DNA from: Alphaproteobacteria bacterium
GTDB taxonomy: Bacteria; Pseudomonadota; Alphaproteobacteria; GCA-2746255
NCBI GenBank assembly: GCA_965249135.1
Contig: OZ252220.1
Span: 1,824,001-1,888,000, forward strand
DNA length: 64,000 nucleotides
Reading direction: 5' to 3'
Shown here: positions 2 to 18,609 of the stretch, in pieces
Numbering within the stretch: position 1 is the stretch's first letter
Layout: each line of letters starts with the position of its first letter
Notes under the pieces: model-generated
What the model was told of the DNA's origin: nothing
Databases searched by the model: none
What the model saw: the letters and a program-made list of their open reading frames with translations, nothing else
Program-made: the position numbers and the translations under genes

Positions 2-313
2 CTGGTCGACCACTGGGACACGGCGGACAGCGTCGTCCCGGTCTATCCCGTGTACGATCGGTTCTGGCACAATGGGAACCCCGTCGCGCATGATCCACGT
101 AGCCTCGTCGGCACCCAGTTCATGGCGCCGTTGATGCGGGAAAGCGGCTTCTACGTCTTCAAGACCTCAGCGTTTGCTGAAGAAGACTGTCGCGTCACTG
201 CGCGGCGCCTATTCATTGAGTTGAGTGAGCAGGAGTGTGTCGACATCGACACCGAGATCGATTTTTTGCGCGCGGAATCAATGTTGCGGCGGCAACAATC
301 GGCACCGTCATGA
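2..313 (+). CDS. Acylneuraminate/ulosonate cytidylyltransferase family protein (NeuA-like), 5'-truncated by window
   Basis: Frame open from base 2 (LVDHWDTADSVVPV...). C-terminal E-S-G-FY and VDIDTEIDFLRAE match the CMP-Neu5Ac synthetase C-terminal DIDxxxDFxxAE motif. Stop overlaps next ATG (ATGA at 310-313). Confidence 0.7.
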   Translation: MVDHWDTADSVVPVYPVYDRFWHNGNPVAHDPRSLVGTQFMAPLMRESGFYVFKTSAFAEEDCRVTARRLFIELSEQECVDIDTEIDFLRAESMLRRQQSAPS

Positions 314-1398
314 CAATGCTGGATCGCATCGACATACAGGCGGCGCGGCACCCTTACTCCGTGCGGTTCTCCGAAACACCATTTGCCGGCCTCGTACCCG
401 CAACTTCCCCCCCGCGTCACGTCTTCATCGACCGGCGTGTCGCCCAGCTGCATCGCGCGCATCTTGGCGCCTTGTCTGACGCACGTTCCGTTCTGGAACT
501 CGACGCCACCGAAACCGCCAAGTCTCTCGATCAACTCACCGGCTATGTCGAGCACTTGGTGGCTCACGGCTTTCGCCGCGATCACCTGCTCGTCGCGGTG
601 GGTGGCGGGATCATTCAAGACATCGTAGCCTTTATCGCGGCCACCCTGATGCGGGGCGTCGACTGGGTATTCTATCCAACGACGCTGCTCGCGCAGGCAG
701 ATTCCTGTATCGGCTCAAAGAGTTCGATCAATGTCGGACAAGTCAAGAACCTTATGGGCTGCTTCTATCCGCCGCTGGACATCCAGATTTCGGTCGATCT
801 GCTCGCGACGCTCGACGCGGTCGACCGCCGGTCCGGAATCGGCGAAATCTTGAAGGTGCACATTATCGATGGCCCGGAGAGTTTCACCTGGGCATCCGAT
901 CACTACCAAGACCTACTGTCGGACGACGAAGTTCTTCGAGAGGGCATCGTAAGAGCGCTGTCGGTTAAAAAAAGATTTATCGAGGTTGACGAGTTCGACA
1001 CCGGTCTTCGTAGTATCTTCAACTACGGTCACACATTCGGCCACGCCATCGAAGCCGCCACCGACTTCGAGGTTCCCCACGGCATCGCGGTGTCGATCGG
1101 AATGGCCCTCGCCAATGCGATGTCCGTTGCGTTCGGCCGGATGTCGCGCGAGGACGAGAGCCGCATGCGGCCGACATTGGAGCAGAACGCTCAAGGATTC
1201 GGAGACGTGCCCTTGTCTATGACGACGTTCTTTGCGGCGCTCGCCAAGGACAAGAAGAACCAGGGGCAGCTCCAGACCGTCGTCTTGCCAGGGCTGGATT
1301 CACTCCCGGAGAAGGTTCAAGTGCCCCTGGATAAGACATTCAAGGATGTCTGCACCGGCTTCTTGGACGAGTCGAACCTGCTGACTCTCGCGAAATAG
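310..1398 (+). CDS. 3-dehydroquinate synthase-like sugar-phosphate cyclase (AroB paralog)
   Basis: Motifs GGGIIQD, PTTLLAQADSCIGSKSSIN, KNLMGCFYPP, EILK, FNYGHTFGHAIE, HGIAVSIGM, KDKKN. Start moved to ATG 310 because of the ATGA coupling. Confidence 0.85.
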   Translation: MTMLDRIDIQAARHPYSVRFSETPFAGLVPATSPPRHVFIDRRVAQLHRAHLGALSDARSVLELDATETAKSLDQLTGYVEHLVAHGFRRDHLLVAVGGGIIQDIVAFIAATLMRGVDWVFYPTTLLAQADSCIGSKSSINVGQVKNLMGCFYPPLDIQISVDLLATLDAVDRRSGIGEILKVHIIDGPESFTWASDHYQDLLSDDEVLREGIVRALSVKKRFIEVDEFDTGLRSIFNYGHTFGHAIEAATDFEVPHGIAVSIGMALANAMSVAFGRMSREDESRMRPTLEQNAQGFGDVPLSMTTFFAALAKDKKNQGQLQTVVLPGLDSLPEKVQVPLDKTFKDVCTGFLDESNLLTLAK

Positions 1399-1405
1399 CC
1401 CGAAT

Positions 1406-2377
1406 ATGAACGTCTTCATTTCCACGTTACCTTTTGGTGAGATCGACAAAGGGCCGCTCGAGTTGCTGGTCGAGGTCGGCGCTAAGGTCCTCGTCAACCC
1501 GACCGGTCGGAAGCTGAGGGATGGCGAAATAGACGCTTTCCTGGGCGACACGGATATTCTGATTGCCGGGACCGAGAATCTCGACGCTGCGAGCCTGTCA
1601 CAGGCCTCTCGTCTCAAGCAGATCAGTCGCGTCGGTATCGGCGTGGATTCCGTCGACTTGAATGCAGCGAGAACGCTCGGGATCGAAGTCACGAACACGC
1701 CCGATGGACCGACGGAGGCGGTGATCGACTTGGCGATCGGCCTGATGGTCTCGCTTCTGCGCAGAGTTCCAGAGGCTGATCGTTGTATCCGCAACGGTCA
1801 GTGGGATCGTCTGATGGGACGTCGGCTCGGGACATGCACGGTCGGCGTCATCGGAGTGGGACGGATTGGCGGTGGCCTAATCCGCCACCTTCGTCGCGCG
1901 TATCCCGGAATATATATCCTAGCCAACGATCCCGAGCCCAAGCCTGAGTTCGAAAACCTGTCAGATGTCGAATGGGTCGCCAAGTCCGAGATCCTAGAAC
2001 GCGCCGATGTTGTCACACTGCACGTTCCGCTGACCGACTTGACTCGGAACATGATCGATGGCGCGGCGTTGGCCAAGCTTCGACCCGACGCCGTTTTAAT
2101 CAATCTCGCCCGCGGCGGGATCATCGACGAGCAGGCGCTTTACGAATGTTTGAAGGCCGGAGAGATACAAGCGGCTGCGATCGACGTGTTTACCAAGGAG
2201 CCCTATCGCGGCGCGCTGGCCGAACTCGGCAACTGTCTTCTGACTGCCCACCAGGGGCCTTTGTCCGAGGACTGCCGCGCCTTGATGGAACGCCAGGCGG
2301 TGGAGGAAGCCGTTCGCTTCATCCGGGGTGAGCGCCGCCACAACGTGGTCGTGCCCGGCCGCCGAGCGGAGCCGTGA
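1406..2377 (+). CDS. D-isomer-specific 2-hydroxyacid dehydrogenase (phosphoglycerate dehydrogenase-like, no ACT domain)
   Basis: SRVGIGVDSVD, GVIGVGRIG (NAD binding), TLHVPLT, INLARGGIIDE, DVF.KEP and catalytic TAH motif. Confidence 0.85.
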   Translation: MNVFISTLPFGEIDKGPLELLVEVGAKVLVNPTGRKLRDGEIDAFLGDTDILIAGTENLDAASLSQASRLKQISRVGIGVDSVDLNAARTLGIEVTNTPDGPTEAVIDLAIGLMVSLLRRVPEADRCIRNGQWDRLMGRRLGTCTVGVIGVGRIGGGLIRHLRRAYPGIYILANDPEPKPEFENLSDVEWVAKSEILERADVVTLHVPLTDLTRNMIDGAALAKLRPDAVLINLARGGIIDEQALYECLKAGEIQAAAIDVFTKEPYRGALAELGNCLLTAHQGPLSEDCRALMERQAVEEAVRFIRGERRHNVVVPGRRAEP

Positions 2378-2447
2378 CCCGCACGCACGTGGACTCCCAT
2401 CCGCAGGAAAAGTAATTACGACGGAATGGCAACACACGGATCGTATT

Positions 2448-3767
2448 TTGAAATCTGACTCCATCGGTATCGAGCTTCATCGCGTGGCCGAAAAGCTATT
2501 CCCGATTTGCCGCAGCATTACGGGTGACGGTGTGCGGCAGACGATCGATGTGCTGAGCCGTAATTTCACGCCGTTCGAAGTTGCCGAAGTGCCCTCTGGG
2601 ACACGGTGCTTCGACTGGACTGTCCCCGATGAGTGGAACATACGTGGCGCGCGCCTGATCGCCCCGGACGGATCTACGGTCGCCGACTTCCAGGAAAACA
2701 ATTTGCACGTGGTCGGCTATTCCGAGCCGGTCGATGTCGAGATTGGACTCGAGGAGCTGCAGCAACACTTGCATTCGCTCGATGCGCTCCCGGAGGCGAT
2801 TCCCCATGTGACCAGCTACTACCGAAGGAATTGGGGATTCTGCCTACCTCACGGACAGCGGGAGCAATTACCGAAGGGTACGTATCGTGCCGTGATCGAC
2901 AGCACGTTAGCTCCGGGATCGATGACCATCGGGGAGTATGTGCTTCCAGGTGAGAGCGCCGACGAGGTCCTGGTGTCGTCCTACGTATGCCATCCGTCCA
3001 TGGCGAATAACGAACTGTCGGGACCGATCGTCGCAAGCGCCATCGGCCGCTGGCTCGGCGAGGAAAAACGGCGATTCACTTACCGCATCGCGCTCTTCCC
3101 GGAAACGGTCGGTTCGATCGTCTATCTCAGCCGCAGGCTGGAGCACCTGAAGCAACGACTGATTGCCGGGTTTCACCTCTCCTGCATCGGCGACGAGCGG
3201 GCCTATTCATTTATTGCAACACCGAGCACCGATACATTTGCCGACCGCGTGGCGCGGCATGTCTACAAGTCAATAGATCCGGGTGCTATCGAATACGATT
3301 TCCTCGATCGTGGCAGCGACGAACGGCAGTTTTGCGCACCCAATGTCGATTTGCCGGTCGTCACATTGATGCGGTCACGGTTCGGCAGCTTTCCAGAATA
3401 TCACACCTCACTTGACGATCTGACTCTGGTTACGCCCGCAGGGCTGGAAGGTGGGTTCTTGGCGGTAAAGCGCTGCATCGAGACCATCGAAGCCGCTTGT
3501 GTGCCGCGGGCCACGCGAACGGGAGAACCGCAGCTGCGGAACTACGAGCTTCGTCCTGATACGTCGACCCGTGATCTCGGCGACTTTTTTCGCCTCGTCA
3601 GCGATGTCCTTGCCTTTGCCGATGGACGCAGGGACTTGGTCGAGCTGAGCGATCGCATCCGGCGGCCTGCCTGGGAGGTGGTTTCGGTCATTGAGCACCT
3701 GGAATCCCATGGCCTCATTGAGCGCTTGCCGGGTACCCGGTCGGGCGGTGGTGTGGATGGTGGCTGA
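2448..3767 (+). CDS. DUF4910-type aminopeptidase-like (M28 fold) polysaccharide biosynthesis protein with C-terminal winged-helix-like segment
   Basis: LFPICRSITGDGVRQT, FDWTVPDEWNI, NNLHVVGYS, TSYY, CHPSMANNELSGP, GSDERQF, EYHTSLD. Start uncertain (TTG 2448 chosen; ORF open from 2328). Confidence 0.8.
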   Translation: MKSDSIGIELHRVAEKLFPICRSITGDGVRQTIDVLSRNFTPFEVAEVPSGTRCFDWTVPDEWNIRGARLIAPDGSTVADFQENNLHVVGYSEPVDVEIGLEELQQHLHSLDALPEAIPHVTSYYRRNWGFCLPHGQREQLPKGTYRAVIDSTLAPGSMTIGEYVLPGESADEVLVSSYVCHPSMANNELSGPIVASAIGRWLGEEKRRFTYRIALFPETVGSIVYLSRRLEHLKQRLIAGFHLSCIGDERAYSFIATPSTDTFADRVARHVYKSIDPGAIEYDFLDRGSDERQFCAPNVDLPVVTLMRSRFGSFPEYHTSLDDLTLVTPAGLEGGFLAVKRCIETIEAACVPRATRTGEPQLRNYELRPDTSTRDLGDFFRLVSDVLAFADGRRDLVELSDRIRRPAWEVVSVIEHLESHGLIERLPGTRSGGGVDGG

Positions 3768-3797: not shown

Positions 3798-4772
3798 ATG
3801 AGTGACGCGATTCAAGTCTATGTCGGGACCGACCGTTCGCAGGCTCTGGCGGTCGAAGTTCTAGCCTATTCGATCCTTCGTCACACAAACCGGACGGTTG
3901 AGGTCCACTCGATGCTCGATCTGGATATCCCGGCGCCGAAGGATATCCGGCAAGGTCAACGCACCGGTTTTTCGTTCGCGCGGTGGGCGATCCCCGAGCT
4001 CACAGGCTATCGCGGTCGGGCGATCTACGTCGACGCGGATATGCAGGTATTCAGGGACATCCACGAACTCTGGAGCGTGCCCATGGATAGTGCCAAGATC
4101 GCCGTTCTGGAACCGCAGCGCGAGACCGGACACAACATTCACCACAAAGCCAACGAGACCTCGGTGATGGTGCTCGACTGTGCCCGCTGCGACTGGACGC
4201 TCCAGGAACTGGTCGACGGATTGGACGGGCGGTACAGCTATGAGCAGATGATGTCGGACCTGCGTTTCCTTGGTGATCGCGACATCGCCCGGACAATTCC
4301 CGCGGACTGGAACCGGTTGGAATATTACACGCCGACCACCGGCCTGCTTCATTACACGATCATGTCGACGCAGCCCTGGGTATCGGCGCGCAACCCTCTC
4401 GCTCATCTCTGGATCGAGGAGGTCAGGCACATGATCGGGGAGGGGGCTCTTGAGATTTCAAAGATCAAACAGGAGATCGATCTCGGTTATTTCCGGCCAT
4501 CGTTGATGGTGGAAATAGAAGAGGGGCCAGTGAACAGCACGGACGATCGACGAATCCGCCAACTTGAAGAAATCGACCGTGCGGCGGGCTATGTTCCACA
4601 CCGCAGTGTCAAGGAATTCGACAGGCAGCGGGCCGCCACCGTGGCCGCATACGAACGCCGGTTGGCGCGCGAAAAAGGCGCGATGCCTTATGCCCGTTTC
4701 GTAGGCGCGGAAATGTTTTACGCTGGCCGGAACAAGGCCGCCGCCTTGAAGCGTCGTATCCTGGGCGGTTGA
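3798..4772 (+). CDS. GT-A glycosyltransferase, GT8-like
   Basis: VYVGTD...YSI, TGFSFARWAIP, DAD (DxD) motif, TSVMVLDC, WN.LE, LLHYT...QPW. Confidence 0.75.
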   Translation: MSDAIQVYVGTDRSQALAVEVLAYSILRHTNRTVEVHSMLDLDIPAPKDIRQGQRTGFSFARWAIPELTGYRGRAIYVDADMQVFRDIHELWSVPMDSAKIAVLEPQRETGHNIHHKANETSVMVLDCARCDWTLQELVDGLDGRYSYEQMMSDLRFLGDRDIARTIPADWNRLEYYTPTTGLLHYTIMSTQPWVSARNPLAHLWIEEVRHMIGEGALEISKIKQEIDLGYFRPSLMVEIEEGPVNSTDDRRIRQLEEIDRAAGYVPHRSVKEFDRQRAATVAAYERRLAREKGAMPYARFVGAEMFYAGRNKAAALKRRILGG

Positions 4773-4787
4773 GGAACAGTAACTCGC

Positions 4788-6719
4788 ATGTGCGGTATCG
4801 CCGGTTTTCTCCGTAGCGATGGGGGCCCAGCCCAAGAATTCTCCAGGGAACTCGATGTGATGGCCGACCTGGTGGCGCACCGGGGACCCGATGCGCGGGG
4901 CGCCTGGATCGATGATGTCGTCGCGCTCGGCCATCGGCGCCTGTCAATTCTCGATGTCAGCGATGCTGGTCTTCAACCAATGGAAAGCCGCTGCGGCCGG
5001 TACATGATCGCGTTCAATGGCGAGATCTACAATTTTCCAGAATTGCGTCGGACATTTCTCGATCCTGCCGGGATCGTTCCGAAGTCGGGTACCGACACCG
5101 AAGTGCTGCTTGAAGTTCTCGCCTGCCTCGGGCCGGAGCGAGCGCTTCCGCACGTCAATGGCATGTTTGCTTTTGCCCTTTGGGATCGCCGCGAGAGAAA
5201 GCTCCATCTGGCGCGCGACCGAGTGGGCATCAAGCCGCTCTATTGGGCGCGGCGCGGAAAGTTCGTTCTCTTCGCGTCGCAGCTCAAGAGTTTTACTGCT
5301 CATCCTGCCTGGACGAAGGAACTTTCGAATGTCGGAATCTGGGATTTTCTGCACCACACGAATATCGGCGAGGACCGGACAGCATTCGCCGAGTGTTGGA
5401 AGATGGAGCCGGCGCAGCATTTGATCATCGGGAGCGACGGCCACATTCAGAAGCGAAGTTTCTTTGATCTGGCGGCGCTGGCCGGCACGCGGAGAGACCG
5501 GGCTGCGGCATGGGGCTCCTATGAGGACGCGGTGGATGAACTCGACACGATCCTGCAGCAAGTCGTGCGAGACCAGTCGCGCGCTGATGTGCCGTTAGGC
5601 GCATTTCTATCCGGTGGCATCGACTCGTCGACCATCGTGGCGATCCTGCGGCAGGATCGGCCGGTCCACAGTTTTTCCATCGGATATGAGGAACCGGAAT
5701 TCGACGAGAGTGGTGACGCCCGGGAAATCGCCGGGCATCTTGGCACCGATCATACGGAATTCATTCTCACCCCCAGGCACGCGGCCGAGGTGATTCCGGA
5801 GCTTCCGTTCATCTACGACGAGCCCTTCGCCGATCCGTCGCAGATTCCGACGACGCTCGTTTCCAGGTTGGCGCGCGGTTCGGTTACCGTGGCGCTGTCG
5901 GGGGATGGTGGCGACGAGCTTTTTGCCGGATACGAGCGCTATGAGCAAAGCGTGGATATGTGGCGCTTTGCAGAGCGCGTGCCGAAGTGGTTACGACGCC
6001 CGATGGCTCGTGGGATCGGCAGTGTACCGCCAGTAGTCTGGAAGGCACTTCTTCGTCCTTTTCTGGCGGACGCAAGCCGAAGCATGCCGTATTACGCAAG
6101 GTTATTGCGCGAACCGGGCATCGCCGCCTACAACGAGCGGGCGAACTATCTTGGGGTGGGCTCGGCCTGTGCGATGGAGTCGCACTATGCATGCGAGACC
6201 GAGCGCCTGTTCCGCGCATCGTCGGACATGGGTAGCTCGCTTGATTCCTTGTTATATTCGGATCAGCGGCGCCGGCTCCCCGACTCGATGCTCACCAAGG
6301 TCGATCGTGCGAGCATGGCTTCGAGTCTGGAGATCAGAGTGCCACTGCTGGACAACAGGGTGCTCGAATTCGCCTGGTCTGTTCCCCGCGATTTCTTGAT
6401 CAGAGACGGCCGTCGTAAAGCGGTGTTGTGTGATGTTCTGGGTCGGTATGTGCCGCCGCCCTTATTCGAACGCCCCAAGAAGGGATTCCATGTTCCAATC
6501 AAGCTTTGGTTGGGCGGTGCGTTGCGGGAATGGGCGGAAAGCCTTTTGTCGGATCGGCTCAAGACTGTTTCGGCATTCCTGGACCGGGCTGTGGTGTACG
6601 ACATGTGGCGGCGTTACTTGGACGGTGATAGTGACCTGACGCATCCGATCTGGGTAGTTTTAATGTTCATAGCTTGGCACGCGAGCCTGGATGCCACCCC
6701 ATCGAGACGGGCGGCATGA
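4788..6719 (+). CDS. asnB: Asparagine synthase (glutamine-hydrolysing)-type amidotransferase, glycan-associated
   Basis: N-terminal MCGIAG nucleophile, HRGPD, LGHRRLSILD, FNGEIYN, FLSGGIDSS, SGDGGDELFAGY, KVDRASMA.SLE.RVP, RPKKGF. Confidence 0.9.
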   Translation: MCGIAGFLRSDGGPAQEFSRELDVMADLVAHRGPDARGAWIDDVVALGHRRLSILDVSDAGLQPMESRCGRYMIAFNGEIYNFPELRRTFLDPAGIVPKSGTDTEVLLEVLACLGPERALPHVNGMFAFALWDRRERKLHLARDRVGIKPLYWARRGKFVLFASQLKSFTAHPAWTKELSNVGIWDFLHHTNIGEDRTAFAECWKMEPAQHLIIGSDGHIQKRSFFDLAALAGTRRDRAAAWGSYEDAVDELDTILQQVVRDQSRADVPLGAFLSGGIDSSTIVAILRQDRPVHSFSIGYEEPEFDESGDAREIAGHLGTDHTEFILTPRHAAEVIPELPFIYDEPFADPSQIPTTLVSRLARGSVTVALSGDGGDELFAGYERYEQSVDMWRFAERVPKWLRRPMARGIGSVPPVVWKALLRPFLADASRSMPYYARLLREPGIAAYNERANYLGVGSACAMESHYACETERLFRASSDMGSSLDSLLYSDQRRRLPDSMLTKVDRASMASSLEIRVPLLDNRVLEFAWSVPRDFLIRDGRRKAVLCDVLGRYVPPPLFERPKKGFHVPIKLWLGGALREWAESLLSDRLKTVSAFLDRAVVYDMWRRYLDGDSDLTHPIWVVLMFIAWHASLDATPSRRAA

Positions 6720-7567
6720 TGCTGAAGACCGCAAAAAATTGCCTCATGACGGTGACCATAAGATTGGTAGAGTTTTTCTTTTCTATCGGCGGGCCGGAGT
6801 TGCTGCACAATGTGGGGCAACGATTCATCCGCACGAGCCGTCTTGGGCTTGGCGCCTTTCCCGTCGGTTTCCGGCCCGAGGAAGTCGAGTATTTTCGAAG
6901 CGATTCCGGAGAGCATTTCAAGGCGGTCCGTGACTATGAGCAGGCTCTCGTCGCTACGGGCTGTGAAAACACCGACAATTTCGCCAAACGGGCGCGCTAC
7001 CTCATGCTGCACCAGTTCGCGCATGCGGCATTCGACCGCCTCGGTGGCGAGGGTGAGATGGCGGAGTGTGGATGTTGGCGGGGACATTCAACCTTTATGT
7101 TGGCACGCATCGCGGAGGCGAGAGGAATTTCCGCATTTCACGTATTCGATTCCTTCGAAGGGCTTTCCGAATACGGCGAAAAAGACCAAGGGGGGCTGTC
7201 CCCGGCGGACCCGCGGCTCGCCGATGCGCGCCGACGGCATTTTGCGGCGGATATCGAAAGCGTCCGAAGGACGCTCGCGCCCTTCGATTTCGTACGTTTG
7301 TACAAGGGCTGGATTCCGGAACGTTTCCCCGCGATCGCAGACCGACGGTTCAAATTCGTCCATATTGATGTCGACCTCTATCGGCCCTACGTCGACTCGA
7401 TCGAGTTCTTCTATCCGAGGCTCCTCGAAGGCGGCGTTATCGTGTTCGACGATTACGGTTCCGCCGGCTTTCCAGGAGCGCGCAAGGCCGTCGACGAGAT
7501 GCGTGAGCGGTTTAAGCCGAGCCTGAGCCTCTACTTTCCGTTGGGCGGCGGCGCCTGGGTAAAGTGA
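6716..7567 (+). CDS. TylF/MycF/NovP-family SAM-dependent O-methyltransferase
   Basis: ECGCWRGHS, FDSFEG, KGWIPE.F, HIDVDLY, GGVIVFDDYG. ATGA coupling to the asnB stop. Confidence 0.8.
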   Translation: MMLKTAKNCLMTVTIRLVEFFFSIGGPELLHNVGQRFIRTSRLGLGAFPVGFRPEEVEYFRSDSGEHFKAVRDYEQALVATGCENTDNFAKRARYLMLHQFAHAAFDRLGGEGEMAECGCWRGHSTFMLARIAEARGISAFHVFDSFEGLSEYGEKDQGGLSPADPRLADARRRHFAADIESVRRTLAPFDFVRLYKGWIPERFPAIADRRFKFVHIDVDLYRPYVDSIEFFYPRLLEGGVIVFDDYGSAGFPGARKAVDEMRERFKPSLSLYFPLGGGAWVK

Positions 7568-7586: not shown

Positions 7587-9350
7587 GTGCTGACGCTCGA
7601 TTTGTATGGTCCGGCCTATCAGGGCCGGTCGGGCAAGCCCGGCTTCGTTCTTCCGACGAGTACGGAAGAGCAGGAGACGTGGTTGGGCCGTGTCGCAAGC
7701 TTGCCGCCGCTCACAGAGAACGGTCAGCGCGACTTCCTCGCAGACTACCGCAGCATCATGGACGGTTTCGACGATGCCAATGCGCAATCGGATGCCTATT
7801 GGTACAGTGCCTTTGGTTCGAGGAATGCGCAGAATTCAAGCTTGTACCATGGATTGGAGCAGCTTTGGCGTCTCGATCAGCAATTGACTCGGTTGGATGT
7901 GCAGGGTTCACCGATCGGCCTGGTTATCCCGGAGCGGTGCATGCTGCAGCCAGTTCGACAACTGGCCCAGTTGCGTGGAATAAGGACGCAGTTACGGGAT
8001 GGATTTCCCGCGCATCGCTGGCTAGATCCATTGCGGCGCCCATGGGGGGCGCTCCGTTATCTGCTCATCTTGTGCGACTATGGGCGTATGCACGGCGACT
8101 ATGGGCCAGCCGGAAATGACGTACTCATCGTCACGGTGTCGGCAGATGAATTGCTGCGGCCGGAACGCTCCGTTCGCGATTTCATTTTCGGCGAATTGCC
8201 AGCCGACCTTGCGAAAGCAGGCTGCAAGGTGCTCATGGTGGCGCAACTGACGGGGCAGATCCAGTCGGCCGCCGGGCGCGCCCATACTCTGCCGCCGCCT
8301 CCCGTCAGGACGCTTGTCGACCTCGCCCGCCCGCGCGATGTCTTTTCCGCTATTTTGCGAGCTGCGGCGTGGCGCCCGGCGGTGGGCCGGGTGCGAAGCA
8401 GGCTGGGCATAGAGCTCTTGTCGCTATTTAGGAACGACGTGCAAATCTGTCGTTGGCGCGACCTACCTACGGCATTTCTTTTGCGCAGGGTTCTCGATCG
8501 GATGCTGGACCGAAACCCGCGGGCTGTGTTGGCTTATCCGTTTGAGAATAATGGTTGGGAACATGCCTGCCAGAGCGCTGCGCAGGCAAGGCACAGCTTT
8601 ACCGCGGCCTTTCAACACAATGCGCTCGTGCCATCTTCGGAGAAGATCTACGCTTCCCGCCGTCGCCCTCATCCCAATCGGATCATCGCCATGGGGCCGG
8701 CCGCAAAGACCATGCTGTGCGACAGATTCGACTATAGTGCAGAAGTTGTATGCGTCGGCTATGCTATGCGCCAATCTGCTGTCTATCGGCATGTTCCGAA
8801 GACCGCTGCGCCACAGACCGTAAAACGCATTCTTGTACTGCTGCAAGGTACGGCGGATTCGGTAGCGCTTATTAATCTGCTTGTCGACGCTTTTTCGGAC
8901 CGAGGAGGATTCTCGGTGACGTTCCGTCCGCATCCAGCCATCCCGCTTGCCGGACAACTCCAGAAGACCAAGCTTGCCGAGCTTCGACCCCCTTTCCTGG
9001 CTAGCAGTAAGAGTGACCTTTATGCCGATATACTCGACCATGATGTGGCGGTGTCCGCAGGATCTACGGCGGGTTGGGAAGCCGTAGCCCTAGGTGTGCC
9101 GACCATCCATGTGGACTTGGGATTTGCCGCGTCAAACAATCCGATGCTCGCCGAGCCGGCCCTGTGCCGTACAGCACACAATGCGGAGGAGTTAGTTGGC
9201 GCGTTACGGGACATCGCTGGACTCAGCGATAGCAAATTTAAGGCTGAAGCGCATCGAGCGCGCCGGTATTTTAAAGAATGTTTTTCCATGAAGAGCGACG
9301 ATGCCTTCAAACGGATTGTGGCCCTCTTTCCAGGCAACAGCGAAAATTAG
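7587..9350 (+). CDS. Uncharacterised glycan-biosynthesis protein with C-terminal GT-B-like half (QxxxD and HP motifs)
   Basis: 587 aa ORF, co-oriented and tightly spaced in the cluster. Motifs FQH, LVLLQGTAD, FRPHP, GSTAGWEAVALG. Confidence 0.6.
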   Translation: MLTLDLYGPAYQGRSGKPGFVLPTSTEEQETWLGRVASLPPLTENGQRDFLADYRSIMDGFDDANAQSDAYWYSAFGSRNAQNSSLYHGLEQLWRLDQQLTRLDVQGSPIGLVIPERCMLQPVRQLAQLRGIRTQLRDGFPAHRWLDPLRRPWGALRYLLILCDYGRMHGDYGPAGNDVLIVTVSADELLRPERSVRDFIFGELPADLAKAGCKVLMVAQLTGQIQSAAGRAHTLPPPPVRTLVDLARPRDVFSAILRAAAWRPAVGRVRSRLGIELLSLFRNDVQICRWRDLPTAFLLRRVLDRMLDRNPRAVLAYPFENNGWEHACQSAAQARHSFTAAFQHNALVPSSEKIYASRRRPHPNRIIAMGPAAKTMLCDRFDYSAEVVCVGYAMRQSAVYRHVPKTAAPQTVKRILVLLQGTADSVALINLLVDAFSDRGGFSVTFRPHPAIPLAGQLQKTKLAELRPPFLASSKSDLYADILDHDVAVSAGSTAGWEAVALGVPTIHVDLGFAASNNPMLAEPALCRTAHNAEELVGALRDIAGLSDSKFKAEAHRARRYFKECFSMKSDDAFKRIVALFPGNSEN

Positions 9351-9353
9351 GAC

Positions 9354-10301
9354 ATGTTGAAAATCAGCGTGATCATTCCCAGCTACAATCGCGCGGCGTT
9401 GCTAGGTCGCGCGGTAGAAAGCGTGCGGGCACAGAATTTCGAGAACTTGGAGATCCTGATCGTCGACGATGGCTCGAAGGACGATACGCTAGATATCGTC
9501 GCTAATTTACAGTGGGACGAGCCTAGAATCAGGCTGGTGCAACATCCGCAGAACCGTGGAGAGGCGGCGGCGCGTAACACCGGATTGCGCGAAGCCCGCG
9601 GGCGTCTCGTTGCCTTTCTCGATTCCGATGATGAATGGCTTGAAGGAAAGCTTCATCGCCAATATGCCGCACTGGAAGCAGCTGGTGGCGATGTGGCTGC
9701 GGTCGTGACCGGCTATATCGTCGTCGCTCCAGATGGTGCGCGGACTTATAATGATGCTTGGCATTTTCATAACGAAATCACGGTACGCAACCTGCTGGTC
9801 AGGGGCTGCGCAATTGGTCTGGGCGGGTGCATCCTGATGCGCCGCGAGGCAGCCCTGGCGGCGGGACCATTCGACGAATCCTTACGTCTGTACGTCGATG
9901 TAGATTGGCTCTGCCGGTTTCTCGACAGGTACCGCATGATTTCCATCAACGAACCCTATACGACCTATTACAAGGCGGCGCTCCGCGACGGCGCCTTTGT
10001 CGGGGCTGTGGCAAAGGCATTTCTAGAAAAGAACGCAGCGCTGATCGAACGCTTCCCACGGTCCGACCGCCGGCTGATTCTTGGCCAATTACACGAAAAT
10101 GTGGCTGTGAGCCACAAAGCGAACGGAAATCGTGCCGGCTTCCTGCGTGCATCCATGAAATCGCTGATTGCGAACCCAAAACGCCAACCTGGCGTTTATG
10201 TTGAGTTCCTTGAGAGCGCCTTGGGCCTCAATCTGCGGCAGCCTCTGTTGCAAATGCTAGGGCGAAGATCGGATCGAAACAACAAGGAGCAGATACCATG
10301 A
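9354..10301 (+). CDS. Glycosyltransferase family 2
   Basis: ISVIIPSYNRA, IVDDGSKD, AARNTG, AFLDSDD. Confidence 0.9.
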   Translation: MLKISVIIPSYNRAALLGRAVESVRAQNFENLEILIVDDGSKDDTLDIVANLQWDEPRIRLVQHPQNRGEAAARNTGLREARGRLVAFLDSDDEWLEGKLHRQYAALEAAGGDVAAVVTGYIVVAPDGARTYNDAWHFHNEITVRNLLVRGCAIGLGGCILMRREAALAAGPFDESLRLYVDVDWLCRFLDRYRMISINEPYTTYYKAALRDGAFVGAVAKAFLEKNAALIERFPRSDRRLILGQLHENVAVSHKANGNRAGFLRASMKSLIANPKRQPGVYVEFLESALGLNLRQPLLQMLGRRSDRNNKEQIP

Positions 10302-11239
10302 TTGGTAGTCTCAGCGTATCAAGCAAGGCGCTTCTCGCCTTTGCCAAGGAGCAGGGAATCGAACCGATCGGAACGCCGCCCGTGGAAGTATTCGATGCCG
10401 TAGAGCCGATTGACGCCGCCGGTTCGACACACGTTACGTTCTGCCGCTTTGACGACGACCGAGGCCGGCGCTGGCTTGAGACGACTCGCGCCGGCGCGGT
10501 ATTCATTCTTCCGCATCTCGCCGCTGAGGCACGCGAACGCCGCGAAGCCTTATACCTGCCCTGCGCGGTGCCTCGGTTCGGGTTGCTTCGTTTCATTGAA
10601 CGTTTCTGGCAAGAGCCACTTTGGCATCCGCCTAGTGGCCGCAACCCCGATATTCACGAATCCGCACGGCTTGACGACAATGTGCGAATAGGACCGTTTA
10701 CCACTATAGGCCCGGATGTCGAGATCGGCACCGAAACCGTGATTGGAGCCGGCGTACATATCACGCACAGTTCGATTGGCCGCGACTGTCTGATTGGCAG
10801 CAACAGCGTCGTCGGCGGACCTGGCTTTGGTTACGAAGACGACGATCAGACCAAAGAGGTGATTGAATTTCCGCAGATTGGCCGTGTCCGGATTGGCGAT
10901 CGGGTCAGACTGGGCGCGAATAATACCGTCGATCAAGCGGCGTTGGGCGAGACGGTGATCGAGGACGATTGCAAGTTCGACGACGGCGTTCACATCGGAC
11001 ACAACGCCAAAGTCGGCAAACGCTGCAAGATTACGGCCCATGCCATGCTTGCGGGCAGCGTGGTAATCGGCTCCGGTACCTGGGTCGGGCCTTCGGCGGC
11101 CATTCGGGACTGGCGGACAGTCGGTGAAGATGCTCTGATCGGTATTGGGGCGGTCGTTACGAAGGATGTGCCCGATGGCGCCACCGTCGTCGGCAACCCT
11201 GCCCACCCGATCGAACGAACAACTCACCGTTACCGTTGA
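10298..11239 (+). CDS. LpxD-like hexapeptide-repeat N-acyltransferase
   Basis: Left-handed beta-helix repeats, GGPGFGY, FPQIGRVRIGDRV, TVIEDDCKFDDGVHIGHN, VVTKDVP...VVGNPA. Confidence 0.8.
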   Translation: MIGSLSVSSKALLAFAKEQGIEPIGTPPVEVFDAVEPIDAAGSTHVTFCRFDDDRGRRWLETTRAGAVFILPHLAAEARERREALYLPCAVPRFGLLRFIERFWQEPLWHPPSGRNPDIHESARLDDNVRIGPFTTIGPDVEIGTETVIGAGVHITHSSIGRDCLIGSNSVVGGPGFGYEDDDQTKEVIEFPQIGRVRIGDRVRLGANNTVDQAALGETVIEDDCKFDDGVHIGHNAKVGKRCKITAHAMLAGSVVIGSGTWVGPSAAIRDWRTVGEDALIGIGAVVTKDVPDGATVVGNPAHPIERTTHRYR

Positions 11240-11243
11240 GGCG

Positions 11244-11945
11244 ATGGACTCTGTGACCACAAATGTAACCGTGATTGCCGCACATCCGGATGATGAAGTG
11301 CTTGGGATGGGAGGGACCCTGGCTCGCCACCGCGCCATGGGCGACCGGGTCTACATTTTCTTTCTGTCGGACGGCATCACCGGACGCGATATTGTCTATG
11401 ATCCTGTGAAGCGCGCCGATGAGATCGAGGCTCGGCGCAAGGCGGCGGAAGCATGTGCCGAACTTATAGGACTAGAATCCATCGAATTCGAGGGCTATCC
11501 AAATCTTCGTATGGACCGCGAGTCGCTGCTTGATGTGACGCAACGGATAGAGAAGCGCCTTGAGCAGTGGGATGCGGAGATCGTCTATACGCATCATTCC
11601 AGCGATATGAATATCGATCATCGCGTAGCCTTCGACGCAACCTTGGTCGCGTGCCGGCCCATACCGGGACGAAGCATCAGGTCCATCCGCTGCTTCGAGG
11701 TCGGCTCGAGTACTGACTATTCGGTGCCATCTCTCGGCCACCCCTTCGAACCCAATCTCTTCATCGAAATCAGCGACTATCTGGATATCCGCCGGCAGAT
11801 GATCGAACGCTATGATATTGAAATGCGTGCTGCGCCGTTTCCCCGGTCGCAGGAGGTTCTCGATGCGCGCGCGACGGTGCGGGGTTCCCAAGTGGGGCTC
11901 GCGGCCGCAGAGGCCTTCATGGAAATTCGCCGCATCATCCGCTGA
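11244..11945 (+). CDS. PIG-L/LmbE-family N-acetyl-sugar deacetylase
   Basis: AAHPDDEVLG metal motif, YTHHSSDMNIDH, RG...G...AEAF. Start placed at ATG 11244. Confidence 0.85.
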   Translation: MDSVTTNVTVIAAHPDDEVLGMGGTLARHRAMGDRVYIFFLSDGITGRDIVYDPVKRADEIEARRKAAEACAELIGLESIEFEGYPNLRMDRESLLDVTQRIEKRLEQWDAEIVYTHHSSDMNIDHRVAFDATLVACRPIPGRSIRSIRCFEVGSSTDYSVPSLGHPFEPNLFIEISDYLDIRRQMIERYDIEMRAAPFPRSQEVLDARATVRGSQVGLAAAEAFMEIRRIIR

Positions 11946-11947
11946 CG

Positions 11948-13276
11948 TTGCCACGACGTCGCCGCATTACATTGGAATCACCCACCACATCGACGGGATA
12001 CGACCAGCGCCAGCATTTAGACGTGGCGACTGGACCTCGGATTCTGTTCATTATCGGCAATCTCCGTCATGGTGGTGCCGAGATTCATTTAAGTATGATT
12101 TGTCCGCGTTTGCGGGAACGTGGGTTTCGGCCGGAAATTTTTCTTCTTACCGGTGGTGGCGAATTGGTCGACGACGTCAAGAACGCCGGAATACCAGTGC
12201 ATGAGCCGCTTTACAAGCTTCCTCCAAAGGCAGGTATTCTGCGACGGGTGTTTCGCCTGGGCGTGGTAACACTTCAGCTGTGGGTATTTCTTCTACGGCG
12301 AAGGTTTGACGTCGTGCACTTCTTTCTTCCAGAAAATTACGTCGTCGGTGCGCCAGTCGCTCTTCTCAGCGGGCATCGCCGGCTCGTAATGAGCCGCCGG
12401 AGCTTGAATTGCTATCAATCTAGGTTTCCTCTACTCGCCCGAATCGAGCGGTTTCTTCATCGGTGCGGTATCGCGATCTTGGGAAACTCCCGACGCGTGG
12501 TCTCGCAGTTGCATGAGGAAGAGGGTGTGCCGGAGGAGCAGCTTGGATTGATCTATAACGGTATAGACTTGACTGCTTACGCTTCAGCGCCCTCGCGGCA
12601 GGCCGTTCGCAATAAGCTTGGGATAGCTGATGAAGCGCTGGTGATGTCGATGGTGGCGAACCTGATTCCTTATAAGGGGCACGCCGATCTGCTTGAAGCA
12701 TTGCGGCTGGTTAAAGATGATCTGCCGGCCGGGTGGCGGCTTCTCGTCGTCGGCCGTGATGATGGTATTGGCCCCCGGCTGAAGTTGTTAGCTGCGCAAA
12801 TGGGATTGGCGGAGAACATCCTGTTCCTCGGCACGCGCAACGATGTCGCGTCTCTCCTGACCACATCGGATATTGGGATTCTGCCCTCGCATGAAGAAGG
12901 TTTTTCGAATGTGCTGGTTGAGGGCATGGCCGCGGGCTTGCCGATGATTGCGACGGATGTCGGCGGTAATGTTGAAGCCGTTGTAGATGACGTTACCGGG
13001 CTCATTGTTCCGCCAAAGGATCCTGCCTTACTCTCGGTGGCGATCATTCGTTTTGCAATGAATGCGGCCGAGCGTGCATCGATGGGAAACGCCGCCCGGC
13101 GCCGAGTACAGGAACTTTTTTCCATCGAGCGATGCGTAGACAACTATGAGCGCTTCTATCGCGCCTTCCTACGCGGTGCCAAGGTGGGAGAAATTCCCGG
13201 GATTCGCGCCAGCGATTTTGGTGGTTGCACTGAAAGCCGAGCGCCGTTGATGATGCATGCTGAAACCAGGAACTGA
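11948..13276 (+). CDS. Glycosyltransferase family 4 (GT-B)
   Basis: GGAE, IYNGID, KGH..LLEA, PSHEEGFSNVLVEGMAAGLPMIATDVGG (EX7E). Start may be GTG 12023. Confidence 0.9.
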   Translation: MPRRRRITLESPTTSTGYDQRQHLDVATGPRILFIIGNLRHGGAEIHLSMICPRLRERGFRPEIFLLTGGGELVDDVKNAGIPVHEPLYKLPPKAGILRRVFRLGVVTLQLWVFLLRRRFDVVHFFLPENYVVGAPVALLSGHRRLVMSRRSLNCYQSRFPLLARIERFLHRCGIAILGNSRRVVSQLHEEEGVPEEQLGLIYNGIDLTAYASAPSRQAVRNKLGIADEALVMSMVANLIPYKGHADLLEALRLVKDDLPAGWRLLVVGRDDGIGPRLKLLAAQMGLAENILFLGTRNDVASLLTTSDIGILPSHEEGFSNVLVEGMAAGLPMIATDVGGNVEAVVDDVTGLIVPPKDPALLSVAIIRFAMNAAERASMGNAARRRVQELFSIERCVDNYERFYRAFLRGAKVGEIPGIRASDFGGCTESRAPLMMHAETRN

Positions 13277-14252: not shown

Positions 14253-14707
14253 CGGTGACGGTCCAGGAGGCCTTGAATGCGACGCTCTTCATCGGGTGAG
14301 AGGGTGCGGGGCTCAAGGGCGGCGCGTCGGCGTCTGCGCAGGTAAAAAGTTGCGACAAGGATGGTGATTCCGAGAATGGCAAACGGACCCAGCCACAACG
14401 GATAGGTGGCCGGTTTCAAGGGGGGCTTCAAGAGCACGTAATCCCCATAGCGCTCGACGACGAAGGCAATCACCGCTTCGTCCGAATCCCCGGCTTCGAG
14501 GCGTTCGCGGATCAGCAGACGAAGATCGCGGGCAAGATCGGCATCCGAATCGTCGATGGATTGGTTTTGGCAGACCAGGCAGCGAAGTTCCTTTCCGATC
14601 TCTCGTGCACGCGCCTCGAGCATGGGATCGTCCAGGATTTCGTCCGGCTCGACGGCAAGGGCCGGCGTTGCGGCGAAAAGCAAAAGCGCGATGAAGACTC
14701 CCCTCAT
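14249..14707 (-). CDS. ccmH: Cytochrome c biogenesis protein CcmH/CycL
   Basis: LRCLVCQNQSIDDS motif, RYGDYVLLKPP. Confidence 0.95.
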   Translation of the reverse strand: MRGVFIALLLFAATPALAVEPDEILDDPMLEARAREIGKELRCLVCQNQSIDDSDADLARDLRLLIRERLEAGDSDEAVIAFVVERYGDYVLLKPPLKPATYPLWLGPFAILGITILVATFYLRRRRRAALEPRTLSPDEERRIQGLLDRHR

Positions 14708-15231: not shown

Positions 15232-15232
15232 G

Positions 15233-17834: not shown

Positions 17835-17855
17835 GTCGCCTCTGGGGGTTGGTGC

Positions 17856-18596: not shown

Positions 18597-18609
18597 CGGA
18601 TTTGGAATT

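Follow-up and report, generated by a model that had tools for sequence, protein, structure and literature searches.

The gene at positions 310 to 1398 of the 64-kb stretch of DNA analysed here (the window, 64,000 nt) encodes a second paralogue of 3-dehydroquinate synthase (AroB/DHQS), distinct from the housekeeping enzyme, whose role is very probably that of a non-shikimate enzyme of a glycan cassette, unrelated to aromatic amino-acid synthesis. Our best explanation, to which we assign a probability of roughly 0.4, is that this AroB-like enzyme catalyses phosphate removal within a conserved precursor-forming cassette present in surface-glycan loci: a heptose phosphate would be oxidised to a 2-ulosonate 7-phosphate, which would undergo DHQS-type elimination and ring closure, and the product would then be CMP-activated. 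In general terms, the place of this gene in a conserved set of sugar-acid genes, within a surface-glycan island, suggests an activated acid sugar or cyclitol acid that has yet to be characterised. The relevant features of the window are the following:

2-313, + strand: 3' part (C-terminal 103 of 220 aa) of a cytidylyltransferase (CT) gene, CTP_transf_3, NeuA/PseF-like (Pfam)
310-1398, + strand: AroB-like sugar-phosphate phospho-lyase/cyclase, TIGR04425 family, 362 aa (family-profile scores, clade)
1406-2377, + strand: D-isomer-specific 2-hydroxyacid dehydrogenase (HADH), 323 aa, closest to phosphoglycerate dehydrogenases (Pfam, NCBIfam, PDB)

The full CT gene (G000 1823651-1824313, 220 aa) begins with an ATG located 349 nt before the window. 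Its TGA stop (311-313) and the ATG of the cyclase (310-312) form an ATGA overlap, while the cyclase stop (1396-1398) is followed by a 7-nt spacer (1399-1405) and by the ATG of the HADH gene at 1406; open reading frames and sequence bear out this arrangement of three genes, as described in an earlier reading of the same DNA (the sequence-only reading). Directly upstream, on the same strand and just outside the window, there are two more genes, one for a GmhA-like SIS isomerase and one for a GFO/IDH/MocA oxidoreductase (GFO), whose frames share a GTGA overlap. That reading had also seen no shikimate gene in view, and ORF and profile searches found none across the 64 kb of the window and the 38 kb that precede it.

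Regarding its identity, the cyclase has the architecture of the sugar phosphate cyclase superfamily (Pfam DHQ_synthase, 113 bits; DHQS_C, 116.3 bits). Against TIGR04425, named AroB-related putative sugar phosphate phospholyase, cyclizing, it scores 415.3 bits (cut-off 400), the match covering residues 8-352 of the protein and positions 1-346 of the 348-position profile; against the aroB model (TIGR01357) it reaches 252.5 bits and falls below the cut-off of 305. Among its relatives, L041 (473 bits), L056 (462 bits) and L108 (409 bits) pass TIGR04425, and L068 (374 bits) and L080 (266 bits) fail. A canonical aroK-aroB pair lies elsewhere in the same genome, 450 kb away (G000 1373097-1374742), with an SKI domain (G000 1373097-1373564) directly before the true aroB (TIGR01357, 380.8 bits). 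In the tree, housekeeping AroB proteins (16 rows) and AroB-like proteins (64 rows) are split with an SH-aLRT of 100, and the window cyclase nests among the latter. The sequence-only reading, which had taken the cyclase for a paralogue distinct from housekeeping AroB, is upheld in this respect and, where computed, the outcomes that it had named as contrary to itself are absent: the gene is not the sole aroB, its product is not in the housekeeping clade and its linkage is conserved. The TIGR04425 family is already catalogued by NCBI, without an assigned function; no characterisation of the family was found in the literature searched, and a protein-atlas search matched nothing more specific than generic '3-dehydroquinate synthase family' clusters.

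Aligning 37 close members of the family with 16 housekeeping AroB proteins shows that the motif differences quoted previously are real and family-wide: DSCIGSKSS is present where AroB has DS(S/A)VGGKTG, and HGIAV where AroB has HGEAV. Ten substitutions are family-specific (family/AroB): Q103/G, C133/S, I134/V, S136/G, S138/T, P154/Q, G178/A, H184/G, L217/C and D230/E. Another 48 columns are invariant in both groups, including R115, D131, K137, N147, E179, K182, K220, R234, N238, H241, H245, H257 and K315/K316, which we take to be metal, phosphate and carboxylate ligands or catalytic positions of Aspergillus nidulans DHQS. Presumably, E179, H241 and H257 are the metal ligands (Glu/His/His), which agrees with the former statement that the metal His residues are kept; K137, N147, N238, H245 and K315/K316 would be the phosphate-binding Lys/Asn/His/Lys; and K220 and R234, both retained, the ligands of the DAHP carboxylate (Lys/Arg).

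Compared with AroB/DHQS, the cyclase has in common the two-domain architecture, the best solved relatives and the invariant columns, but it differs in its score, its separate clade, its ten substitutions and its context, since it is never found beside aroK and always in sugar cassettes. EEVS (ValA, 4p53), DDGS (5tpr) and DOIS (2d2x) belong to the same superfamily and are secondary-metabolic cyclases acting on non-DAHP sugar phosphates; similarly, the substrate proposed here would be the 1-carboxylate analogue of sedoheptulose-7-P. Nevertheless, among solved structures the cyclase is nearer to DHQS (154 bits) than to EEVS (104), DOIS (100) or DDGS (69), and the presumed carboxylate-binding Lys/Arg pair is kept, which places it outside the sedoheptulose-7-P cyclases (EEVS/DDGS/EVS). 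Besides, EEVS, DDGS and DOIS sit in aminocyclitol or mycosporine clusters, whereas the AroB-like family is found in glycan loci with a CMP-transferase. A 14-residue DHQS/EEVS fingerprint (Kean et al., 2014) is mentioned in PMC4426668.

The sequence-only reading had described a module of three genes, but the conserved unit is larger and consists of an SDR, the AroB-like enzyme, a 2-hydroxyacid dehydrogenase and a GFO, accompanied in most loci by an SIS isomerase and a CT. When 14 close metagenome loci with at least 8 kb of flank are compared with 32 housekeeping aroB loci (the labels 'family' and 'housekeeping' having been set by tblastn score against the window genome's own two proteins, and the profile HMMs built from some of the same loci later counted), the SDR, the 2-hydroxyacid dehydrogenase and the GFO are near the AroB-like gene in 14/14, the CT in 13/14 and the SIS isomerase in 8/14, and each of them in 0/32 of the housekeeping loci. 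Furthermore, in 35 of the 37 family loci with at least 800 nt of upstream sequence, an SDR gene lies at most 300 nt upstream of the AroB-like gene, being its usual translationally coupled partner. Accordingly, the linkage of the three genes across genomes holds as far as the HADH and the CT are concerned, but the usual coupled partner is the SDR and not the CT; the CT-cyclase link looks looser than the SDR-cyclase link because CTs stand 246-5094 nt away. In whole genomes of other classes, the order is GFO-SIS-SDR-AroBL-HADH (G640, G430 and G416) or SIS-GFO-SDR-AroBL-HADH (G748), with a CT nearby in G430, G416 and G748. Cassette CTs are of mixed type: KdsB-type in L039 (256.9 bits, above the cut-off) and L061, and PseF-like elsewhere.

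It had been suggested that the upstream DNA be read for an aldolase or ulosonate synthase. No conserved C-C-forming synthase was detected: NeuB/PseI/LegI-type synthases do not form part of the conserved unit and, L052 (weak) and L076 are the only close loci with a NeuB at a distance of up to 9 kb, and an HpcH aldolase is present at L039 and L074. The carbon skeleton, then, probably comes from a primary sugar phosphate. In a deep AroB-like subclade (HpcH-SDR-AroBL), an HpcH pyruvate aldolase replaces the GFO and the HADH, which would represent an alternative route to a 2-keto-acid phosphate, and there is no CT within 6 kb. Other neighbours are more sporadic: (i) a protein passing the 6-phosphogluconolactonase model is present in L046 and L048, with a weak match in L045 and none in the window's genome, a presence that fits C1 oxidation of an aldose phosphate; (ii) YhcH/NanQ-like proteins adjoin the AroB-like enzyme in L051, L054, L055, L056 and L062; and (iii) in L067, L068 and L070, the CT, SDR and AroB-like enzyme are accompanied by a class-III aminotransferase and a Maf-like MptE domain.

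As for the window's own neighbouring proteins, the full CT frame matches Pfam CTP_transf_3 (PF02348) with 54.9 bits (gathering score 22.6), reaching 58.5 bits with NCBIfam PseF (cut-off 205.7) and at most 28.6 bits with KdsB-type models, so that it has no equivalog-level match. Its nearest solved relatives are NeuA-type CMP-sialate synthetases and it is most similar to the cassette CTs of L056 and L055 (27-28% identity, full length); none of the other CTs of its own genome was matched at 1e-3. The HADH carries both the catalytic and the NAD-binding domain (Pfam 2-Hacid_dh_C, 161.7 bits; 2-Hacid_dh, 70.6 bits). Its best NCBIfam model is PGDH (220.8 bits; cut-off 454), and PdxB and GhrB models are also matched, always below the equivalog cut-offs, and its best PDB matches are D-3-phosphoglycerate dehydrogenases (152 bits), with 2-ketogluconate reductase structures also being matched. 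It thus resembles SerA, PdxB and the 2-ketoaldonate reductases, but it is encoded in the cassette and not in serine or pyridoxal pathways. No SDR orthologue was found in the window's island, and elsewhere in the genome there are only generic matches (28-38%). The window is, in consequence, atypical: the CT occupies the SDR's usual place beside the cyclase and, since the near-universal SDR is absent, this version may be rearranged or give a different product.

Taking substrate, product and step order from family names and gene neighbourhood, the following steps can be proposed: (i) the GmhA-like SIS isomerase would convert sedoheptulose-7-P into an aldoheptose-7-P; (ii) the GFO would oxidise C1, yielding a heptonate-7-P; (iii) the 2-hydroxyacid dehydrogenase would oxidise C2, yielding hept-2-ulosonate 7-phosphate, which can be seen as DAHP carrying a 3-OH or, equivalently, as sedoheptulose-7-P in its carboxylate analogue; (iv) the AroB-like enzyme would carry out a DHQS cycle (NAD+ oxidation, phosphate beta-elimination, re-reduction and intramolecular aldol) and give a hydroxylated 3-dehydroquinate-like carbocyclic acid; (v) the ketone would be reduced by the adjacent SDR in most organisms while, here, an island aldo-keto reductase or a second GFO enzyme may stand in for the missing SDR; and (vi) the CTP_transf_3 enzyme would form a CMP derivative, to be used by the island transferases. 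The third step is supported by the nearest relatives of the HADH (PGDH, PdxB), which act on phosphorylated hydroxy-acids. It also departs from the sequence-only reading, in which the dehydrogenase acted after the cyclase: the HADH is more likely to act before it, making the 2-keto acid, because a quinate-like product has a tertiary hydroxy-acid at C1, which is not open to oxidation.

These parts of the proposal are not equally firm. Judging from the gene content, a 2-ulosonate omega-phosphate is a reasonably probable substrate for the AroB-like enzyme, and the carbocyclic nature of the product is put forward tentatively, at somewhat under even odds. It seems doubtful that the donor is the CMP ester of the carbocycle; equally hard to credit in full is the chain that would lead from sedoheptulose-7-phosphate, without a condensing enzyme, to a hydroxylated, quinate-like carbocyclic acid whose tertiary C1-OH is cytidylylated and which becomes part of a surface glycan. 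Glycosyl transfer from CMP-ulosonates relies on the ring oxygen, which a CMP ester lacks when it is borne by a tertiary carbon of a saturated carbocycle; as a CTP_transf_3 enzyme is consistently present, this speaks for a true ulosonic acid as end product. The heterogeneity of the cassette CTs, the absence of the SIS isomerase from 6/14 loci and the lack of an SDR in the window also run counter to the preferred reading. Bradyrhizose was considered as a product and set aside: its genes had yet to be found in 2016, and a dTDP-glucose dehydratase is at the heart of the candidate cluster, DHQS not being named in the available portion of the source.

The routes to CMP-Kdo (KdsD-KdsA-KdsC-KdsB) and to CMP-nonulosonates (NeuB/PseI/LegI plus NeuA/PseF/LegF) likewise begin with an SIS-type isomerase, end with a CTP_transf_3 enzyme and are found in surface-glycan islands. 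Unlike them, the cassette lacks both a phosphatase and a conserved condensing enzyme of the KdsA or NeuB type, it includes three dehydrogenases and a DHQS-type phospho-lyase, and its CT fails the PseF and KdsB cut-offs. If the proposed route is true, bacteria possess a compact and horizontally scattered cassette in which oxidation and DHQS chemistry turn a heptose phosphate into an activated C7 acid unit, either a carbocycle or a 7-deoxy-ulosonate, dispensing with NeuB- or KdsA-type condensation; surface glycans would gain a new class of building block, the function of TIGR04425 would be explained and a DHQS paralogue would be at hand in which a few substitutions re-tune substrate choice. Should the unit be a CMP-carbocycle, glycan biosynthesis would have its first DHQS-type cyclase, no carbasugar would have been CMP-activated before, and a transferase of unprecedented chemistry would be implied.

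Precisely because a CMP-carbocycle is a poor glycosyl donor, a non-carbocyclic alternative is a serious rival, although we consider it somewhat less likely than the preferred reading: the product may stay a sugar, with the AroB-like enzyme working as a phosphate-eliminating deoxygenase and a CT-activated 7-deoxy-hept-2-ulosonic acid being transferred by a normal glycosyltransferase. The enzyme would act on a CMP-capped ulosonate, which cannot ring-open, or release a 6-keto-7-deoxy acid, and the coupled SDR would reduce the intermediate. The CTP_transf_3 enzyme in 13/14 close loci (known members of this family activate ring-oxygen ulosonic acids), the ATGA coupling of the CT itself in the window and the YhcH/NanQ-like neighbours (ulosonate anomer/ring-opening families) agree with this possibility, as does the SDR-AroB-like coupling in 35/37 loci, which fits the capture of a reactive intermediate. 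But the active site matches that of AroB column for column, with no sequence sign of room for a CMP group, and the window has no SDR. Moreover, every characterised DHQS-type sugar phosphate cyclase known to us cyclises, and the DHQS enol-pyranose intermediate cyclises spontaneously in solution. It is still less probable that the carbocyclic acid is formed and not CMP-activated, becoming instead a non-glycosidic substituent (e.g., amide- or ester-linked via its carboxylate) while the CT serves another ulosonic acid of the island. The island contains three NeuB-like genes, outside the cassette, four CTP_transf_3 genes, an AsnB-type amidotransferase and acyltransferases, the deep subclade does without a nearby CT and the cassette CTs are of mixed type; yet CTs accompany 13/14 close loci despite the scarcity of NeuB within 9 kb, and the window CT is akin to the CTs of other cassettes but not to the remaining CTs in its genome.

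Another improbable option is that the enzyme tailors Kdo-8-P or a nonulosonate-9-P, the loss of the terminal phosphate yielding an omega-deoxy keto acid that would then be reduced or transaminated into a new Kdo or nonulosonate derivative. The location of the cassette within nonulosonate-rich islands and the loci with a class-III aminotransferase and Maf-like MptE domain are in keeping with it. CT-oxidoreductase pairs are indeed known to tailor nonulosonates: as far as the available portion of the source describes, EpaA/EpaB of Acinetobacter baumannii carry out the 8-epimerisation of pseudaminic acid and combine a CTP_transf_3 domain with oxidoreductases (an aldo-keto reductase fusion and an adh_short_C2 SDR) that tailor the ulosonic acid, but they include no DHQS homologue, 2-hydroxyacid dehydrogenase or SIS isomerase there and their substrate is a finished nonulosonate (PMC12053666). 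In addition, the unchanged carboxylate and phosphate ligand positions would suit a C7 substrate of the size of DAHP better than a longer one, and no NeuB-type synthase was found near most loci. Finally, the enzyme might simply duplicate or back up 3-dehydroquinate synthase in the shikimate or quinate pathway. This would be compatible with the conserved DHQS catalytic set and the 252.5 bits on the aroB model, but it is highly improbable in view of the scores, which fall below the aroB cut-off and exceed that of TIGR04425, the separate clade, the aroK-aroB pair elsewhere, the constant association with sugar-modifying cassettes (0/32 in housekeeping loci) and the distribution of the cassette within the genus.

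In this respect, the cassette had no DNA match in the five other genomes of the genus, and HMM searches of three of these gave only an aroB-level match. The TIGR04425 cut-off is passed in 7/401 sampled genomes of the phylum and, among 401 genomes sampled separately from the class, by the window's own genome alone, which marks the family as a variable, strain-level surface trait. On plasmids, tblastn found no family member, only six records with 35-38% identity, three of them annotated as aroB or 3-dehydroquinate synthase. A contig scan with a single protein retrieved four distant loci only (L005-L008), which were left out of later counts.

The remaining part of the glycan island in the window contains the following genes:

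2328-3767, + strand: DUF4910/DUF2172/HTH_47 'aminopeptidase-like' protein (Pfam DUF4910, 308.8 bits; DUF2172, 116.9 bits; HTH_47, 40 bits)
3798-4772, + strand: GT8-like glycosyltransferase (Pfam Glyco_transf_8, 31.8 bits)
4788-6719, + strand: asparagine-synthase-type glutamine amidotransferase (Pfam Asn_synthase, 331 bits, GATase_6/7; NCBIfam asn_synth_AEB, 432 bits)
6674-7567, + strand: TylF-type O-methyltransferase (Pfam TylF, 75.8 bits; Methyltransf_24, 55.9 bits)
7587-9350, + strand: 587-aa protein, candidate transferase (NCBIfam TIGR04326, 35 bits; PseG, 23.4 bits; each well short of its cut-off)
9354-10301, + strand: GT2 glycosyltransferase (Pfam/NCBIfam)
10298-11239, + strand: LpxD-like hexapeptide acyltransferase (Pfam/NCBIfam)
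11145-11945, + strand: PIG-L deacetylase (Pfam/NCBIfam)
11948-13276, + strand: GT4 glycosyltransferase (Pfam/NCBIfam)

The DUF4910 protein probably starts downstream of 2328 and has no homologue in 80 related loci, which places it outside the conserved cassette. Similarly, the TylF-type gene probably starts later than listed, because the listed start overlaps the preceding gene. No transferase conserved across loci was found: the 587-aa protein, which has no Pfam match and is not conserved at other loci, the DUF4910 protein and the 560-627-aa proteins adjoining the cassette in relatives show no cross-locus homology except in L046, L048 and L065. The genes between 9354 and 13276 constitute the 3' end of the glycan island, after which oppositely oriented ccm genes (13398-19907) are found. 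The 587-aa protein bears, in any case, a weak likeness to TIGR04326 and PseG-type surface-carbohydrate proteins.

The cytidylyltransferase (CT), AroB-like and dehydrogenase genes at the start of the window are part of a longer run of same-strand genes, in the order ABC exporter, isomerase (SIS), oxidoreductase (GFO), CT, AroB-like gene and 2-hydroxyacid dehydrogenase (HADH). The run is as follows (L004 is the stretch that takes in the window and its upstream DNA; subtracting 18000 converts L004 coordinates to those of the window):

L004 13971-15812, same strand: MsbA/PglK-like ABC exporter
L004 15978-16595, same strand: GmhA-like SIS isomerase (gmhA model 90.7 bits vs a cut-off of 209)
L004 16592-17605, same strand: GFO/IDH/MocA oxidoreductase
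Window 2-313, same strand: 3' end of the CT gene, with its ATG 349 nt before the window (genome position 1823651); Pfam CTP_transf_3, 54.9 bits on the full gene
Window 310-1398, same strand: DHQ-synthase homologue (AroB-like), 362 aa; Pfam DHQ_synthase 113 bits, DHQS_C 116 bits
Window 1406-2377, same strand: D-2-hydroxyacid dehydrogenase, 323 aa; Pfam 2-Hacid_dh_C 161.7 bits

The frames of the SIS and GFO genes overlap at GTGA, and a better GmhA-like gene is present elsewhere in the genome. The ORF list and the sequence confirm the close packing of the last three genes described in the sequence-only reading: the CT stop TGA (311-313) overlaps the AroB-like start ATG (310-312), and 7 nt separate the AroB-like stop from the HADH ATG at 1406.

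Judged by its sequence, the protein encoded at window 310-1398 is not the housekeeping 3-dehydroquinate synthase (DHQS). It passes TIGR04425, a hypothetical equivalog in NCBIfam (415.3 bits vs a cut-off of 400), and fails the aroB model (252.5 bits vs 305). A separate, aroK-linked aroB was found in the genome (2.12 Mb, one contig) at 1373678-1374721; it scores 380.8 bits, and its ORF overlaps the 3' end of the shikimate-kinase gene by 4 nt. In a tree of 80 proteins (a quick IQ-TREE search with some long branches flagged), 16 housekeeping AroB and 64 AroB-like proteins split at SH-aLRT 100, and the window protein falls outside the former and nests within the latter, beside a 54%-identical metagenome protein.

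The motif differences from AroB noticed earlier are real and common to the whole family, as shown by aligning 37 close and 27 wider family members with 16 housekeeping AroB. Ten columns are fixed otherwise in the family: Q103, C133, I134, S136, S138, P154, G178, H184, L217 and D230 (Met1 at window 310). Forty-eight columns are invariant in the close family and AroB alike, including R115, D131, K137, N147, E179, K182, K220, R234, N238, H241, H245, H257 and K315/K316. Their equivalents in Aspergillus nidulans DHQS are, we assume, in order, R130, D146, K152, N162, E194, K197, K250, R264, N268, H271, H275, H287 and K356; in the structure of that enzyme by Carpenter et al. of 1998, those residues are reportedly the metal, phosphate and carboxylate ligands. 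Among solved structures, DHQS scores best (154 bits), ahead of the EEVS ValA (104), DOIS (100) and DDGS (69). Since the DHQS-type residues are kept and DHQS structures score best, the likeliest substrate of the AroB-like protein is a DAHP-like 2-keto-acid phosphate, handled by DHQS chemistry. A passage of PMC4426668 describes the sugar phosphate cyclase superfamily, for which a 14-residue fingerprint exists.

The genomic neighbourhood was compared across 80 metagenome loci, the best 80 out of 593 that were confirmed, retrieved with an alignment of 25 family members; the two search patterns do not amount to random sampling. By tblastn score they were split into 48 family loci (window protein higher) and 32 housekeeping loci (the genome's own AroB higher). 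Pfam scans of 135 ORFs neighbouring the AroB-like gene in 25 family loci revealed a recurring gene set, which was counted with profile HMMs made from those same ORFs. In 35 of the 37 family loci where 800 nt or more of upstream sequence is available, a short-chain dehydrogenase (SDR) gene precedes the AroB-like gene by no more than 300 nt. Of the 14 close relatives (240 bits or more in tblastn) flanked by 8 kb or more, all have SDR, HADH and GFO, 13 have CT and 8 have SIS; each of the five is found in 0 of the 32 housekeeping loci, 19 of which have flanks of that length. Whole genomes of other classes carry the order GFO-SIS-SDR-AroBL-HADH (G640, G430 and G416, with a CT nearby in the last two), SIS-GFO-SDR-AroBL-HADH-SDR-CT (G748), SDR-AroBL-HADH (G450, a 3.6-kb contig) or SDR-AroBL only (G422). 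The unit is a six-gene cassette in which SDR is the core partner of the AroB-like gene. The proposal of a non-housekeeping paralogue in a CT/AroB-like/HADH module holds as regards the paralogue and the linkage, which recurs in relatives, but the module has to be enlarged to six genes, with SDR.

Some family loci carry further genes. At L046:9997-10734 and L048:7657-8361, two genes 3' of the AroB-like gene, the encoded protein scores above the cut-off of the 6-phosphogluconolactonase model (137.6 and 134.5 bits vs 124.45); in L046 a glucose-1-phosphate cytidylyltransferase comes directly after it. In L051, L054, L055 (10073-10983), L056 and L062, the AroB-like gene is directly followed by one or two YhcH/YjgK/YiaL (DUF386) genes, which are relatives of N-acetylneuraminate anomerase (84 bits, below cut-off).

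The distribution of the TIGR04425 family is sporadic. Of 401 evenly sampled genomes of the class (one of them unpublished, G240, a non-carrier), only the window's genome passes its cut-off; 7 of 401 genomes of the phylum do so, and 14 model genomes all fall short. Named family members occur in Magnetospirillum moscoviense and Magnetospirillum sp. LM-5. In the five other genomes of the genus, DNA similarity to the cassette is limited to 42-85-nt ABC-transporter motifs, and the three of them in the class sample show an aroB-level match only.

Two variant arrangements can be distinguished: (i) a deeper AroB-like subclade (L080, L084, L090, L096, L108, and L120, L121 and L130 from genomes G368, G219 and G718), in which every member has the order HpcH/HpaI pyruvate aldolase-SDR-AroBL, with CT lacking and a TPP enzyme plus NDP-sugar epimerases frequently present; and (ii) a branch (L067, L068, L070) with CT(+cupin)-SDR-AroBL-class III aminotransferase (L067:3815-9539; L068:7249-11835), with an MptE-like (Maf-type) gene 3' of the aminotransferase in L067 and L068, which suggests an amino derivative, perhaps flagellin-attached. 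In the deeper subclade, L108 passes the TIGR04425 cut-off (409 bits); L080 and L108 have a TPP-dependent enzyme, NDP-sugar epimerases and a DegT aminotransferase, with no CT within 6 kb. The window itself is odd in that CT stands where SDR usually stands, and no specific SDR was found in its island. Its CT most resembles those in the cassettes of L056 and L055 (27-28% identity, full length), with no match at 1e-3 to the other CTs of its own genome.

By family assignment the cassette contains a sugar-phosphate isomerase, three dehydrogenases, a phospho-lyase and a CMP-transferase, and no conserved condensing enzyme or phosphatase. From the family assignments, conserved neighbourhood and conserved residues, which are established, we infer the simplest route that uses all parts. 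SIS would convert sedoheptulose-7-P to aldoheptose-7-P, GFO would oxidise C1 to give heptonate-7-P, and HADH would oxidise C2 to give hept-2-ulosonate-7-P, from which the AroB-like enzyme would eliminate phosphate as DHQS does; a carbocycle would form by default, and SDR would reduce the ketone formed on ring closure. The lactonase-like proteins of L046 and L048 fit the C1 oxidation; for C2, the nearest relatives of HADH are 3-phosphoglycerate and 4-phosphoerythronate dehydrogenases and 2-ketoaldonate reductases. In the HpcH-aldolase subclade, the 2-keto-acid phosphate would instead be reached by aldol addition, which would explain the absence of GFO and HADH there.

The product may, as a minority possibility to be taken seriously, be non-carbocyclic: a 7-deoxy-hept-2-ulosonic acid, ring closure being blocked by SDR or by prior CMP-capping. 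To our knowledge, the only known substrates of CTP_transf_3 enzymes are ring-oxygen ulosonic acids, and this outcome stays alive because a CMP ester formed at a saturated, tertiary carbon of a carbocycle would be a very poor glycosyl donor; against it, the enol-pyranose intermediate of DHQS chemistry cyclises spontaneously. Attachment of the carbocycle through its carboxylate, with CT serving another sugar, is unlikely; in its favour, 4 of the 5 CTP_transf_3 genes of the genome sit in the island. It is improbable that the AroB-like enzyme tailors Kdo-8-P or NulO-9-P; only two close loci, L052 (weak) and L076, have a NeuB-type synthase within 9 kb. Plain redundancy with AroB is scarcely credible.

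The enzyme family is already catalogued, and its characterisation was not found in the literature searched, from which subscription journals are largely absent: the TIGR04425 name and accession returned nothing relevant, and dehydroquinate synthase combined with cytidylyltransferase and nonulosonic acids, with flagellin glycosylation, or with nonulosonate or O-antigen returned no related paper. The cassette logic and product appear to be undescribed. A section of PMC12053666 presents EpaA (CT fused to an aldo-keto reductase) and EpaB (an SDR), which jointly 8-epimerise pseudaminic acid, and a passage of PMC4743980 gives the bradyrhizose genes as unknown as of 2016.

The surrounding island extends from about genome position 1786000 to window 13.3 kb, up to oppositely oriented ccm genes. 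HADH is followed by genes for a DUF4910/DUF2172 protein, GT8, an AsnB-type amidotransferase, a TylF methyltransferase, a weakly TIGR04326-like 587-aa protein, GT2, an LpxD-like acyltransferase, a PIG-L deacetylase and GT4. The first of these (window 2328-3767, DUF4910/DUF2172/winged-helix, 'aminopeptidase-like') has no counterpart in any of the 80 related loci and is therefore specific to this island. Upstream of the ABC exporter lie a PseB/PseC/GNAT/NeuB/CT set, a NeuB-CT fusion, another NeuB-like gene, a radical-SAM/SPASM enzyme, a carbamoyltransferase and others. At L004:8791-12772 (genome 1814791-1818772), a 594-aa NeuB + CTP_transf_3 fusion precedes a 469-aa GT2 protein with a weakly PseF-like C-terminal part and a 287-aa NeuB-like ORF; ulosonate synthase and activating domains thus appear fused or stacked within one island. 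At L004:1891-5244, an FMN-dependent alpha-hydroxyacid dehydrogenase, a radical-SAM/SPASM enzyme and a PhyH-type dioxygenase are adjacent, an unusual set for sugar tailoring. Further upstream, L119:1-11659 (genome 1786001-1797659) holds a Pse/Leg-like set (PseB-type dehydratase, DegT aminotransferase, GNAT, aldo-keto reductase, class-III aminotransferase, NeuB, hexapeptide transferase, WbqC-like protein and CT), followed by methyltransferases and a carbamoyltransferase; the island therefore exceeds 50 kb and encodes several acid sugars. Its end is marked by ccmH, ccmF, ccmE, ccmC, ccmB, a ccmA-like and a thioredoxin-like gene (window 13398-19907, minus strand), past which, as far as the scan reached (about 41 kb), the genes are of the ordinary housekeeping kind.
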